This document shows, in pieces, positions 40,636 to 61,205 of a stretch of 64,000 nucleotides of DNA; within the stretch, counting starts at the first letter, position 1; each line of letters starts with the position of its first letter. This stretch comes from an uncultured Alphaproteobacteria bacterium (GTDB taxonomy: Bacteria > Pseudomonadota > Alphaproteobacteria > RF32 > CAG-239), in the NCBI GenBank assembly GCA_944392225.1, contig CALXWB010000003.1:8723-72722 (forward strand). The letters are read 5' to 3'. The translations under genes and the position numbers were made by a program. The notes under the pieces are model-generated. The model searched no databases, was not told the origin of the DNA, and worked only from the letters and a program-made list of their open reading frames with translations.

Positions 40636-42387
40636 CTAGAACAGGCGGAGAACGGCTTGGCTTGCTTGTGAAGCGAGTGAGAGGGAGTTAATTGCCAATT
40701 GTTGTTGCGTTTGCAGGGAGAGCATGTTGGCGGACTCTTCATTCATATCAGCCAATGTTAATTTATCCGCACCTTCTTCCAGAACATTAATCAAATTATC
40801 GGTAAAAGTTTCGCGCTCGGTGATAATCGAATAATAGTTACCGAGTTTGGTTGAGGCCGAGCGCAAGGTGTTTTTTGCGTTAGATAATTGTTCTATGGTT
40901 TTTTGCACATCATCTGCCGTTAGCCAATCGGCCGTTATTAAACCGATTTTATCGGAGCTCAAATCCACACCCATCACATCCAAAGTGGCGCTGCGATTTT
41001 CATTAAAAATCACTTTCAAATCATCTGCTTGAAGAAGATTAACGCCCTTGTATGAACTGTCTTTAATCAAAGAATCATATTGCGACAAAGTTTTGTTGAA
41101 ACTTGAAGTATATTTATCTTCCACCTTGCCTCTTAGGCTATTATCTCCCTTGAAATCAAAATCTTCCCAGCTATATTCCGTTTCGGTAAAATCTGCAAGA
41201 TTTTTGCGAATGTAATCTGCCGTAATAAATATATGGGGATCTGGTTTAACATTTCCTGTTAATGTGATATCTTTTGAGGCAACAAAACTTCCTTGATCTT
41301 GATAATTCAACCTTGCGCCGGTTTCAAAAATCATTGCTCCGGGGGTTGAATCGCTTTGCAATATGGACATTATATTATACCCCATCATATTTACTTCTGA
41401 GCCGGATTTAAAAGTTATATTGCCTTTTTGGGTTGTTACATCAAAAGCAAAAGTTCCTTTCGTATAAATATTCAATTTTCCATAGATATTGGCATTGTTA
41501 CTAATTGCATAATTATATAATGAGCCCTCATTTCTAATGGTTGTTTCGCCATATATGTCAACGACCGAAGATGCAGATGAATCAATGGCATAGATATAAT
41601 CATTTTCGGAAAGATCAAAAAAGTTTTTGCCGTCTATTTTTGTATTGTTTGAACCTAAGGCATATAAACCTCTTATATTGGTTTTGATGTCAATATTTTG
41701 CGCAAGCGTATTATTCGCACTGTTCAAATAAATACATTGCCCTTCTCCGTTTGACTTAACATCAATTGACAGATCTGAAATGATATTATTATCAGCACTT
41801 GAGCTTATTGCAGAAAAAGATCCTGTCCCATCATATTCAAACTTAAGCGAGGAGAATTTGTCGGTGTCGGAGTCAAATTTGCCATAATAACCAATACCCA
41901 CCAGTTTTTGATTGTCTTTTAAGGTGATGTTTTGGTCGCCCATGTCAATCTCGCCATAAATGCAAATCTCTTCTTTGCCGGCCTTGACGGCATTAATTAA
42001 TTCTTCTTTGCTGCTGACAACCGCACCGTTTTCTCCGACCAGGCTTTCAAAATAGCTTTTTTCTGGGATTTTTAAGTCTTCCAAAGCCGAATTGGCCGTG
42101 GCTTGCGCAATGGCTAAAAGCTCTTCCGCTTTTTCTATCCCTTCAGTGGCGGCTTTGATTGTTTGCACCGATTGGCCCATCGAATCAAGCAATGCGGACA
42201 AATCCTCGGCTCGGTTATTAAGCGAGCTGGCGGTGTAATAGGAACTGGGGTTATCTATGGCGGAATTAACTTTTAAGCCGGTGGATAAGCGTAATTGCGT
42301 GCTGTCCTGCAACTTTGAGATTTGTTGCAAGCTTAACAAATTGCTGCGCATGGACGCTGTTAAACTTATTTCTGACATATCCACCAA
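40636..42387 (-). CDS. Giant flagellin-domain protein 1 (flagellin N- and C-terminal D0/D1 helices with a large beta-helix-like central insert)
   Basis: The N-terminus (…ISLTASMRSNLLSLQQ…QLRLSTGLKVNSAIDNPSSYY…) and C-terminus (…LADMNEESANMLSLQTQQQLAINSLSLASQ…LRLF) match flagellin termini. The central ~350 aa is N/S/T/G/I-rich and repeat-like. Confidence 0.8.
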   Translation of the reverse strand: MVDMSEISLTASMRSNLLSLQQISKLQDSTQLRLSTGLKVNSAIDNPSSYYTASSLNNRAEDLSALLDSMGQSVQTIKAATEGIEKAEELLAIAQATANSALEDLKIPEKSYFESLVGENGAVVSSKEELINAVKAGKEEICIYGEIDMGDQNITLKDNQKLVGIGYYGKFDSDTDKFSSLKFEYDGTGSFSAISSSADNNIISDLSIDVKSNGEGQCIYLNSANNTLAQNIDIKTNIRGLYALGSNNTKIDGKNFFDLSENDYIYAIDSSASSVVDIYGETTIRNEGSLYNYAISNNANIYGKLNIYTKGTFAFDVTTQKGNITFKSGSEVNMMGYNIMSILQSDSTPGAMIFETGARLNYQDQGSFVASKDITLTGNVKPDPHIFITADYIRKNLADFTETEYSWEDFDFKGDNSLRGKVEDKYTSSFNKTLSQYDSLIKDSSYKGVNLLQADDLKVIFNENRSATLDVMGVDLSSDKIGLITADWLTADDVQKTIEQLSNAKNTLRSASTKLGNYYSIITERETFTDNLINVLEEGADKLTLADMNEESANMLSLQTQQQLAINSLSLASQASQAVLRLF

Positions 42388-42510
42388 CTACTTTTGTATA
42401 TTGTTTTTTCTTTTGGATGAGGTTTATTTAATACTCAAAACCTTTTCATCCGCTTTTTACAGTATCATGCCTTGGGTTAATGTTTGGTTAATGCACAAGA
42501 AAAAAGCTCC
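42100..42510. repeat. Inverted repeat, left copy (promoter/5'UTR plus first ~95 codons of flagellin-like gene 1)
   Basis: About 95% identical to the reverse complement of 60811-61205. The antisense ORFs 42257..42586 and 60820..61050 give near-identical peptides (MAELTFKPVDKRNCVLSCNF…), confirming the repeat. Confidence 0.85.
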
Positions 42511-42530
42511 TTTGCAGGAGCTTTTTTCTT
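42499..42530. terminator. Terminator after cvpA (hairpin symmetric on both strands)
   Basis: aaaaaagctcc-tttgca-ggagctttttt. Confidence 0.65.
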
Positions 42531-43290
42531 ACTCTACCGTATTTTCTATCAGCCGATCCAAATTGCTACGTTCGCTCGCATTATAGCTCTTGGCTTTAGC
42601 GGCTTCTTCTTTTTTCTTCTTCTCTGCCTCAAGCTTTTGGTTGGCCTTGCTGTTGTCTATCACCTTTATCGGCTTTTTCTCGGCTTTTTTGCCAACTTTC
42701 GGCTGTGCCAACATCTCAAACAAAACATCTATATCCGTCTTATTTTTATCTTCTTCAATCTGCTCTTCTTCATCTTCTTTGCTGACAGAACGCGTTTTTT
42801 CTCTTATCTTGACCAAAGTTGATTCGGGAATCAAATCTTCTATCGGTTTGGCAAAAGAACCGGCAATATTGAAATATTTTGACTCTTGCATTACTTTGGC
42901 TTGGTTTTCTTTCGGAACCATCCAGTTTATCAAAATATAGCACAAAATAACCAGCAAAAATGCTCTGAATATACCAAAAAACAACCCCAAAACCCTGTCC
43001 AAACCGCTCAATTTGCTCTTTCTGATTGAGCCGATGATTTTTGCTGTCAGAATAATCCAAAATATAAAAAATATGATGACAATTCCCGATGCCGTGGCAA
43101 CAGCCGCAACCGAGCCGTTTTCTACATAATTGGCAACAATCGGCGTGAAAACCGGCATTAAATAAATCACTGCAGCAATGGCTAAAACCCAGCCGATTAT
43201 TGATAAAACTTCTTTTATCAGCCCGCGGCTTAAGGCTATTAAGGCCGATATGGCAACAACTATCAATATTGCAACATCTAAACTGTTCAC
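42529..43290 (-). CDS. cvpA: CvpA-family membrane protein with a charged C-terminal extension
   Basis: N-terminal TM helices typical of CvpA (MNSLDVAILIVVAISALIALSRG…). Conserved position upstream of radA. Confidence 0.75.
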   Translation of the reverse strand: MNSLDVAILIVVAISALIALSRGLIKEVLSIIGWVLAIAAVIYLMPVFTPIVANYVENGSVAAVATASGIVIIFFIFWIILTAKIIGSIRKSKLSGLDRVLGLFFGIFRAFLLVILCYILINWMVPKENQAKVMQESKYFNIAGSFAKPIEDLIPESTLVKIREKTRSVSKEDEEEQIEEDKNKTDIDVLFEMLAQPKVGKKAEKKPIKVIDNSKANQKLEAEKKKKEEAAKAKSYNASERSNLDRLIENTVE

Positions 43291-60080: not shown

Positions 60081-60087
60081 GTAAAAA

Positions 60088-60810
60088 ATGGTCAGAGAAA
60101 TTGTTTTTGATACGGAAACAACGGGTTTTTATGCCGATAAAGGTGATCGATTGGTGGAAATCGGCGCCATTGAGCTCATTAACCATATTCCAACGGGAAA
60201 AACTTTTCATCAATATATCAATCCGCAAAGAGAAGTGCCGGAAGAAGCTTTCAAAGTTCATGGTTTGTCTTATGAGTTTTTGAAAGATTTTCCTACCTTT
60301 GACCAAATTGTTGATGATTGGCTCAATTTTGTCGGTGATGACGGTATTTTGGTGGCTCATAATGCCAAGTTTGATATCACCTTTTGTAACTTTGAACAAA
60401 AAGCCTTGAATAAGCCCGAGTTTTCTTGGGACAGAGTGATTGATACGCTGGAAATTGCACGCAATATGTTTCCGGGAGCACGCGTCAATTTGGATGCTCT
60501 TTGCAAACGCTTTAATATTGATAACTCAAACCGCACCAAACACGGTGCTTTGCTTGATGCCGAGCTTTTGGCAGAAGTTTATCTGCAGCTCATCGGCGGT
60601 CAAGAACCGTCTATGATGTTTGATGAGAAGAAAAAATCAGCACAGCAGACAACGGATATTCAGTTCGGGGGAGAGGGAAAAACAAGACAAGAACGCCATT
60701 TTCCTTTGAGTGAAGAAGAGATAAAATTACATAATGAATTTTTGCAAAACAAAATAAAAAATGCCATATGGTTGGCTGAGCCTGAATTATCAGAAAAAAA
60801 TAGAATTTAA
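60088..60810 (+). CDS. dnaQ: DNA polymerase III epsilon subunit (3'-5' proofreading exonuclease)
   Basis: Exo I FDTETTG, Exo II and Exo III (HGALLDAELLAEVY) motifs. Confidence 0.9.
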   Translation: MVREIVFDTETTGFYADKGDRLVEIGAIELINHIPTGKTFHQYINPQREVPEEAFKVHGLSYEFLKDFPTFDQIVDDWLNFVGDDGILVAHNAKFDITFCNFEQKALNKPEFSWDRVIDTLEIARNMFPGARVNLDALCKRFNIDNSNRTKHGALLDAELLAEVYLQLIGGQEPSMMFDEKKKSAQQTTDIQFGGEGKTRQERHFPLSEEEIKLHNEFLQNKIKNAIWLAEPELSEKNRI

Positions 60811-61205
60811 GTTGGTGCATTAACCAAACATTAACCCGGCATATGGTAGTTTAAAAGACGGATGAAAAGGTTTGAGTAAGAAAACCGCATCCAAAGTATT
60901 GTAATATATCAAAAAGTAGTTGGTGGATATGTCAGAAATAAGTTTAACAGCGTCCATGCGCAGCAATTTGTTAAGCTTGCAACAAATAGCAAAGTTGCAA
61001 GATAGCACGCAATTACGCTTATCCACCGGCTTAAAAGTTAATTCCGCCATAGATAATCCCAGTTCCTATTACACCGCCAGCTCGCAGAATAACCGAGCGG
61101 AGGATTTGTCAGCTTTGCTTGATTCAATGGGCCAATCGGTGCAAACCATCAAAGCCGCCACCGAGGGGATTGAGAAAGCGGAAGATTTATTAGAGCTAGC
61201 CAAAG
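60811..61205. repeat. Inverted repeat, right copy (promoter/5'UTR plus first ~95 codons of flagellin-like gene 2)
   Basis: See the left copy. The upstream 110 bp (gtgcattaaccaaacattaaccc…aaaagtagttggtggatATG) is shared by both genes. Confidence 0.85.

Follow-up and report, generated by a model that had tools for sequence, protein, structure and literature searches.

The stretch of DNA analysed here, referred to as the window, comprises 64,000 nucleotides (nt) of an uncultured alphaproteobacterium (RF32, CAG-239; assembly GCA_944392225.1, contig CALXWB010000003.1, forward strand, 8,723-72,722), and positions are counted from its first letter. Two flagellin genes, designated FlaL and FlaR, lie in it on opposite strands, and their ends form two nested pairs of inverted repeats (arms) around an 18.5 kb segment that carries partition genes and a candidate replication origin (oriC). 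The initial annotation of this DNA had proposed that recombination between the arms makes the whole segment invertible, and that a strand switch beside FlaL is the trace of a past inversion. The explanation favoured here, with a probability of about 0.8, is that the repeats are the common parts of a flagellin family expanded in this lineage, and that the layout is ancestral and did not arise by inversion through recombination between FlaL and FlaR.

Two flagellin genes and their inverted repeats

The two genes were at first described only as flagellin-like, and several independent methods now identify both as flagellins. The Pfam domains Flagellin_N (PF00669; E=3e-7 and 7e-6, at or above the gathering score) and Flagellin_C (PF00700; E=3e-8 and 9e-8) are present in each of them, the NCBIfam flagellin PRK12688 matches both with E=1e-59, and the nearest solved structures among PDB sequence matches are Caulobacter FljK/L/M/N (E=1e-11 to 1e-13); an AlphaFold2 model and Foldseek searches agree. 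Translation likely starts at the ATG codons at 42378 and 60929 (MSEISLTASMRSNLL...), which have GGTGGA ahead of them, and the TTG starts of the longest open reading frames (ORFs) of FlaL and FlaR are probably unused. The two proteins are 97% identical over their first 88 residues and 77% identical over the last 154, and their central cores show weak similarity to each other.

The AlphaFold2 model of FlaL, built on a 38-sequence alignment, reached a mean predicted local distance difference test score of 78, with values above 90 in the core. It combines Caulobacter-like D0/D1 helices, including long helices at residues 8-102, with an all-beta core made of short repeated strands. When the termini were searched with Foldseek, Caulobacter filaments were returned with a probability of 1.00. 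The matches of the core were weak but consistent, comprising the AlgE4 epimerase, alginate and pectate lyases, polygalacturonases, phage tailspikes and the PfbA adhesin. The outer domain of FlaL (residues ~118-400) is confidently predicted to be a right-handed beta-helix of pectin-lyase-like fold, and this domain could bind or cleave glycans.

The nested inverted repeats were recovered by both a repeat search and BLASTN. The inner (5') pair aligns over 404 columns with 87.4% identity (E=6e-141), and the outer (3') pair over 450 nt with 76% identity (E=2e-89); both pairs are genuine and far above chance (coordinates in Table 1). In a global alignment, the 5' arms are 88% identical as a whole, 80% over the ~115 bp ahead of the ATG and 91% over 284 coding bases, while the first ~258 coding bases, counted from the alignment, are ~94% identical. 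Of the earlier description of the inner pair as ~95% identical over ~400 bp, the length therefore stands, but such an identity is reached only in that first coding part. Similarly, the outer pair exists as described, but it is larger than the ~330 bp first given. The alignments also bear out what the repeats consist of, namely the 5' ends of both genes with about 110 bp of promoter and 5' untranslated region (5'UTR), and their 3' ends. Perfect-match runs of 76, 53, 28, 23 and 20 bp occur in the 5' arms, and runs of 32 bp (the longest) and 25 bp in the 3' arms.

A CtrA-box-like motif, TTAA-N7-TTAA, marks the upstream edge of each 5' arm and, in FlaL, sits in a 23-bp block (GTGCATTAACCAAACATTAACCC) that is identical in both copies. 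CtrA-box-like motifs in flagellin promoters fit the cell-cycle control of motility in alphaproteobacteria. An Rfam search found no element in the shared 5'UTR, its sole match in the window being a signal recognition particle (SRP) RNA elsewhere. In addition, a scan of 40.3-42.7 kb for sigma-70 promoters and terminators gave counts no better than those of shuffled sequences and missed the shared upstream block.

Gene order in relatives and orientation within the species

Relatives were reached through homologues of cvpA, the gene next to FlaL on the inner side, and represent three species (loci L103, L109 and L115): E04__bin53 (CvpA 85% identical, 55-kb contig), ONAT22 scaffold_275 (78%, 83-kb contig) and ERZ13405075 NODE_6 (67%, 200-kb contig). 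In all three, the series parA parB...mlaE mlaF radA cvpA meets recR ybaB dnaX on the opposite strand in convergent orientation, and in none of the three is a flagellin found between cvpA and recR. The gap between these two genes is 80-190 bp in six loci (L103, L109, L115 and the short contigs L104, L110 and L111). By BLASTN, L103 and L109 are collinear with the window over 53.2-42.50 kb and again over 40.45-31.3 kb, and only the FlaL block is missing. Collinearity breaks at 42500/40449 in L103 and at 42502/40444 in L109, where these relatives carry 132 and 39 bp, respectively. The cvpA terminator hairpin at this border has an equivalent behind cvpA in L103, L104, L109 and L110.

Since relatives without FlaL share the layout, FlaL was inserted into it, and the strand switch at 40.5-42.4 kb predates the gene. 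By this comparison, a promoter-plus-gene unit of ~2 kb containing FlaL entered recently and in this species only. The initial annotation had regarded the switch as compatible with a past inversion, and had also held that an unchanged strand layout in related genomes lacking the duplicated gene would speak against its reading; three FlaL-less relatives have exactly this layout, and as far as the data reach the reading is refuted by the standard that it set itself.

FlaR has a different history. A flagellin occupies the spacer between dnaQ and smr in E04__bin53 as well, and that locus (L013) is collinear with the window across dnaQ-Fla-smr. A metagenome-assembled genome (MAG) from Nepal (L074) also has a dnaQ/smr flagellin, which is flipped and split into two ORFs (L074 9989-11840), and in CAKQKH (L080) a flagellin stands beside smr, with its upstream side lost at the contig end. 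As far as these loci can tell, FlaR is an old resident of the dnaQ/smr spacer. No synteny breakpoint was found at the repeats relative to L103, L109 and L115 at cvpA/recR, or to L013 at dnaQ-Fla-smr. As judged from gene order in the clade, the strand layout around both genes is thus shown to be ancestral and not a product of recombination between them.

The Nepal lineage has some features of its own. Its dnaQ/smr flagellin, being in two ORFs, may be a pseudogene, and another flagellin lies ahead of mlaE. A supposed flagellin beside recR in the same MAG was rejected, as the 679-aa ORF at that place is a GT5/GT4 glycosyltransferase.

Orientation within the species was examined in contigs collected by identical cvpA, dnaQ, recR or smr proteins, and the population evidence consists of consensus contigs from 3-4 short-read assemblies. 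One contig of sample ERZ24773254 (L002) covers 45429 to 41406 and thereby crosses the left 5' arm, and another from that sample (L008) covers 58114 to 61975 and crosses the right one, both in the parental arrangement. In sample ERZ28614460, a scaffold 100% identical to the window was found; scaffold_2381 of this sample extends from 42063 to past 64000, and its loci L001, L007 and L099 have parental junctions only. A k-mer test detected no recombinant junction in any fetched locus, within a small sample of consensus contigs. A scan of Joint Genome Institute (JGI) metagenomes for the recombinant pattern (cvpA terminator...FlaR core) gave no match, and the parental control pattern, which does match the window, was also unmatched there; the species is apparently absent from that collection. 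The idea of a present-day invertible cassette thus finds no support in the contigs, every independent one that crosses an arm having parental junctions only. Furthermore, in a Pfam scan (ORFs of at least 150 aa in 1-38 kb, all gene-like ORFs beyond), none of the major ORFs of the 64 kb proved to be a recombinase, invertase, transposase or integrase.

The flagellin family and the origin-proximal segment

FlaL and FlaR are members of a widespread family, with more than 4100 related proteins in the database at E<=1e-20. A FlaL-based scan of species-representative genomes gave 323 confirmed loci, and all of the 79 that were kept come from MAGs of uncultured Alphaproteobacteria or proteobacteria, many of them multi-copy and several bearing human-cohort labels (Hadza, Nepal, BRZ, E04 and others). 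For instance, about 27 N-terminal flagellin matches occur in CAKQMD01 and 5-10 in other MAGs. The copies are mostly single genes, placed in different intergenic sites in different genomes; some sites occupied in relatives are empty in the window, for example one between recF and its neighbouring gene (L087) and others near the homologues of window 868-1446 (L042) and 13899-14537 (L033). Every copy examined carries its own promoter. Overall, this is a large, strain-variable family of beta-helix flagellins with CtrA-like promoters in uncultured gut Alphaproteobacteria.

At least two other paralogs, P0128 and P0150, both from sample ERZ28614460, carry this 5' arm as well. P0128, which matches FlaL with 78% identity along its whole length, adjoins accBC and the hook gene flgE, while P0150 lies upstream of dnaE. 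The 5' arm common to FlaL, FlaR and these two copies starts a few bases from a TTAACCAAACATTAAC box and runs from there via GGATGAAAAGGTTT and the ribosome-binding site into the coding region. In this arm, FlaR is 91.9% identical to P0128, 92.4% to P0150 and 87.4% to FlaL. Between genomes, flagellin upstream regions are wholly different; the E04__bin53 flagellin at the FlaR position, for example, has an unrelated upstream region, which a second paralog in that genome has as well. Because upstream regions are genome-specific, the arms can be understood as a shared regulatory region and filament-core domains combined with duplication or homogenisation within the genome. From these alignments, the arms are family-wide and not particular to the FlaL/FlaR pair.

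The repeats also have a practical consequence. Short-read contigs of many samples stop at or inside the arms (L003-L006, L009, L089, L100 and L106-L108); flagellin repeats systematically break assemblies of this lineage, and MAG synteny at such places needs care.

Strains differ strongly in the flagellin next to recR, for which three or more highly dissimilar alleles occur (L090, L091, L093, L095, L114). The spacer between recR and FlaL (40419-40635) contains a tandem duplication of ~105 bp, extending over the palindromic 3' terminus of recR (CAAACGCGCTGCGTTTG), and its copy number and similarity differ by strain (L090, L092, L093, L096). A swap of cores between loci, considered for the FlaR-position gene of E04__bin53 on account of its FlaL-like core start, was rejected, as the identity is ~46% and the core type is common.

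The segment between the arms consists of housekeeping genes (Table 1). Pfam annotation and a parS search agree with the initial annotation in placing radA, mlaEF, parAB and both parS sites between the repeats, and the ORF layout agrees that the HAD hydrolase is the one gene of 42.5-58.9 kb outside the minus strand. The left flank is dnaX-ybaB-recR on the plus strand and the right flank smr on the minus strand, followed by mltA (-) just past the window end, as seen in L007 and L099. The parS sites, near parAB, were searched as the 16-bp palindrome TGTTNCACGTGAAACA, and no shuffle reached the observed count.

Table 1. Coordinates of the flagellin genes, their arms and the features between and around them
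Feature	Position	Strand	Description
FlaL	40636..42378	-	Flagellin paralog, 580 aa from ATG; Caulobacter-type D0/D1 termini, predicted beta-helix outer domain
FlaR	60929..62983	+	Flagellin paralog, 684 aa, in dnaQ/smr spacer
Left 5' arm	42095..42496	-	~115 bp promoter/5'UTR and first 284 coding bases of FlaL
Right 5' arm	60815..61212	+	Promoter/5'UTR and first 284 coding bases of FlaR
Left 3' arm	40633..41082	-	FlaL C-terminal D1/D0 coding region, to 3 bp beyond stop codon
Right 3' arm	62537..62986	+	FlaR C-terminal D1/D0 coding region
TTAA-N7-TTAA, CtrA-box-like	42477..42491	-	Upstream edge of FlaL 5' arm
TTAA-N7-TTAA	60820..60834	+	Upstream edge of FlaR 5' arm
FlaL block	40450..42499	-	Promoter, FlaL and ~186 bp downstream spacer, between cvpA terminator and recR
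cvpA intrinsic-terminator hairpin	42500..42527	-	AAAAAAGCTCCTGCAAAGGAGCTTTTTT; flagellin-copy homology starts directly after it
Housekeeping block	42529..58906	-	cvpA, radA, mlaF, mlaE, hprK-C, tsaE, SNase, hypothetical, parB, parA, rsmG, PHP, EPSP-synthase-like, mnmG, mnmE, rho
HAD hydrolase	56913-57620	+	Only plus-strand gene in 42.5-58.9 kb
parS	50916..50931		Perfect, TGTTTCACGTGAAACA
parS	53729..53744		One mismatch
Candidate oriC	58907..59492		586-bp rho/coaE spacer
coaE and dnaQ-like exonuclease	59493..60810	+	Short right-hand portion of bracketed segment

The spacer between rho and coaE is a credible oriC candidate on sequence grounds, and the earlier placement of an origin near 59.2 kb gains from several concordant features. 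Its GC content is 27.6%, against 41.6% in the window, and four DnaA boxes (59172, 59197, 59324 and 59425; one perfect, three with one mismatch) lie within 260 bp. TTAA-N7-TTAA occurs in it at 58943, 59091, 59229 and 59439, which is four of the seven motifs in the window; the total of seven is not enriched relative to shuffles (mean 4.3), so that the signal lies in the clustering. The blocks TGTGGATAA, TTGTCCACA and TTATGCACAAAAGGTTAACGTTCTGTTAATAACT and the DnaA boxes are kept in two other species. The gene strand switches at this site, and GC skew is -0.150 over 42.5-58.9 kb and +0.056 rightward, with a cumulative minimum at 56.7 kb, which is local evidence from 64 kb only. The arrangement, an AT-rich spacer with DnaA boxes and four TTAA-N7-TTAA that has rho-mnmE-mnmG-rsmG-parAB on one side and coaE-dnaQ on the other, resembles a Caulobacter-type oriC (Cori) with its DnaA and CtrA sites. 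It differs from a Caulobacter-type Cori in that dnaA is ~52 kb away (dnaA-dnaN-recF, 5390-9397), and the origin here is predicted from sequence. The spacer upstream of dnaA (4608-5389; 782 bp, AT-rich, 31.6% GC) was considered as a rival origin and rejected, as it has one near-consensus DnaA box only and no TTAA-N7-TTAA.

Some further observations concern regulation and annotation in the window. Six of the seven TTAA-N7-TTAA motifs lie either in the candidate oriC (four) or at the upstream edges of the flagellin promoters (two), the seventh being at 57061; this distribution hints at a CtrA-type cell-cycle regulon. A gene for a CcrM-like N6 methyltransferase is located at 10626-11555. The small SRP RNA (Rfam RF00169, 65.7 bits; 37662-37757, +) overlaps the start of the longest dnaX ORF (TTG 37683), and the true dnaX start is probably further downstream, consistent with the 570-571 aa calls in relatives.

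Explanations of the inverted flagellin repeats

According to the favoured explanation, the family unit would be composed of an opening of ~110 bp with promoter, 5'UTR and the CtrA-box-like TTAA-N7-TTAA, and of the N- and C-terminal D0/D1 coding regions, these conserved ends surrounding a hypervariable beta-helix outer-domain core. FlaR would have resided in the dnaQ/smr spacer for long, and FlaL would have been inserted later between the cvpA terminator and recR. Both genes point away from the candidate oriC and are thus co-directional with replication, which makes them mutually inverted. The similarity of the arms would reflect a filament core under purifying selection, regulatory sequence held in common, and recent duplication or within-genome homogenisation among paralogs. 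In other words, when scattered paralogs all follow the direction of replication, those on either side of the origin are homologous in inverted orientation, and this is an ordinary situation.

In principle, the arms could serve as RecA substrates, and inversion between them is mechanically possible. The alignment of the arms agrees with the initial annotation that a crossover in the inner pair would keep both genes intact. With oriC inside the segment, inversion would leave all genes co-oriented with replication, and oriC, now 1.7 kb from the right arm, would come to lie 16.8 kb away from it. As co-orientation would be kept and the shift would amount to only ~15 kb, such an inversion is expected to be nearly neutral, with no predicted change in expression, a negligible change in replichore balance and no regulatory switch.

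Several points weigh against the favoured explanation. A minority orientation would be invisible in the consensus contigs of so few short-read assemblies, and the arms are the exact end point of many contigs (L003-L006, L009, L089, L106-L108), which makes assembly graphs ambiguous. With 76 and 53 bp of uninterrupted identity, the arms are above the usual RecA minimum, so that exchange is feasible. How a promoter-plus-gene unit entered without flanking homology lacks an explanation. Moreover, the Nepal MAG (L074 2835-13600 and L084, with the cvpA side confirmed by L116) has dnaX-ybaB-recR across oriC, in the order recR-GT5-grpE-secB-tim44-mltA-smr-Fla-dnaQ-coaE-ori-rho in L074, and its dnaQ/smr flagellin is flipped; cvpA adjoins an acetyltransferase and parE in L084 and L116. 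On this gene order, origin-spanning rearrangements do occur in the wider group; at the breakpoints of this distant lineage (L074, L084, L116), no flagellin was found.

The proposal that the 18.5 kb oriC/parABS segment flips in the population through the FlaL and FlaR arms, with the nearby strand switch as a relic, is improbable. It can draw on inverted arms with identical runs of 76, 53, 28 and 23 bp, on the sparing of both genes by an inversion, on the rearranged origin region of the distant lineage, and on the precedent of Campylobacter jejuni, in which inversions of 93 and 388 kb occur between Tlp paralog repeats, the 93-kb one being origin-proximal and both orientations being observed in isolates (PMC5135748). 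It is opposed by the identical strand layout of FlaL-less relatives, by the exclusively parental junctions of independent assemblies, by the availability to FlaR of better partners than FlaL among other paralogs, and by the lack of any predictable functional difference between the orientations. Additionally, the 5' arms have diverged by 12% and the 3' arms by 24%, and sequence divergence of this extent should strongly depress RecA exchange. A broader version, in which the dispersed flagellin cassettes form a genome-wide recombination network in these gut Alphaproteobacteria and, in addition to the swapping of cores, FlaL/FlaR exchange flips oriC-parABS at low frequency to give two chromosome isomers, is equally doubtful; if true, the origin and the partition sites would lie on opposite sides of the same flanks in co-existing isomers. 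DNA inversion is a classical means of flagellar phase variation, and the inverted repeats here do adjoin flagellin promoters, but a site-specific invertible element of the Hin/Gin/Fim type controlling flagellin expression is scarcely credible. The recombinase scan found no candidate gene, the repeats are homologous coding and promoter sequences of 400-450 bp and not short recombination sites, the segment consists of 18.5 kb of housekeeping genes, and the promoters travel with their genes, so that inversion would leave expression unswitched. A mis-join of the MAG contig at multi-copy flagellin repeats, which would make the bracket itself unreal, is very unlikely too. The family is indeed multi-copy and contigs of many samples end at the arms, but independent assemblies cross both 5' arms (L002, L008), L099 crosses all of FlaR, L089 joins recR to the FlaL 3' arm at 100% identity, L114 joins a near-identical FlaL (same 90%-identity protein cluster) to recR, and relatives are collinear over the cvpA/recR junction.

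A different role for the arms has a chance only a little short of even, namely that they serve chiefly as homology for core replacement, by gene conversion between paralogs or import from other strains, which would lead to surface diversification and not to inversion. The locus next to recR is hypervariable among strains while its flanks are 96-99% identical; the allele of L091 and L095 is just 74-82% identical to FlaL, and in L090 and L093 an identity of 96-97% lasts as far as 41082, where the 3' arm has its inner edge, and an unrelated core follows. This mosaic at 41082 suggests that the conserved ends act as homology for core replacement. Within-genome paralogs, moreover, share arms that are missing from their positional counterparts in other species. 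On the other side, no donor for the alternative core of L090 and L093 was found among all fetched loci, the presence of a promoter on every examined copy leaves no silent cassettes, and the recovered sequence of the variant alleles lacks their 5' ends.

Several known systems resemble parts of this picture. Inversions by recombination between inverted rrn operons, insertion sequence (IS) copies or paralog repeats are a known kind of event, and the present case is like these and the C. jejuni Tlp inversions in having inverted, part-identical segments across the origin and a product that would keep orientation relative to replication. It is unlike them in that a single orientation has been seen, the arms diverge by 12-24% and no repeat breakpoint exists relative to the relatives. 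Multi-flagellin alphaproteobacteria (Caulobacter crescentus with FljJ-O; those with large Bradyrhizobium-type flagellins, PRK12688/PRK14708) likewise have such D0/D1 termini and several paralogs per genome. In contrast to those multi-flagellin sets, copies are far more numerous here (~27 in one relative) and dispersed singly instead of clustered, and there is an outer domain, a predicted beta-helix of ~280 residues, which Caulobacter flagellins lack. In a survey of the outer domains of flagellins, a minor pectate-lyase-like cluster is listed and enzymatic flagellins including flagellinolysin (Eckhard 2017) are cited (PMC11532411). The diversity described there is of the same kind, with conserved D0/D1 and a swappable outer domain. 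What differs from that set is the expansion in MAGs of uncultured Alphaproteobacteria, several of them from human cohorts, and the replacement of alleles at strain level; enzymatic activity is only conjectural here.

A naturally invertible replication origin would, if true, be unusual. The favoured explanation, that the repeats are the shared ends of an expanded flagellin family in an ancestral layout, turns this locus into a worked case in which inverted repeats made of gene-family termini need comparison with relatives before they are read as a switch. The expanded family of beta-helix flagellins is a more notable by-product of the analysis than the repeats themselves, and it may be relevant to host immune recognition or to interactions with glycans.

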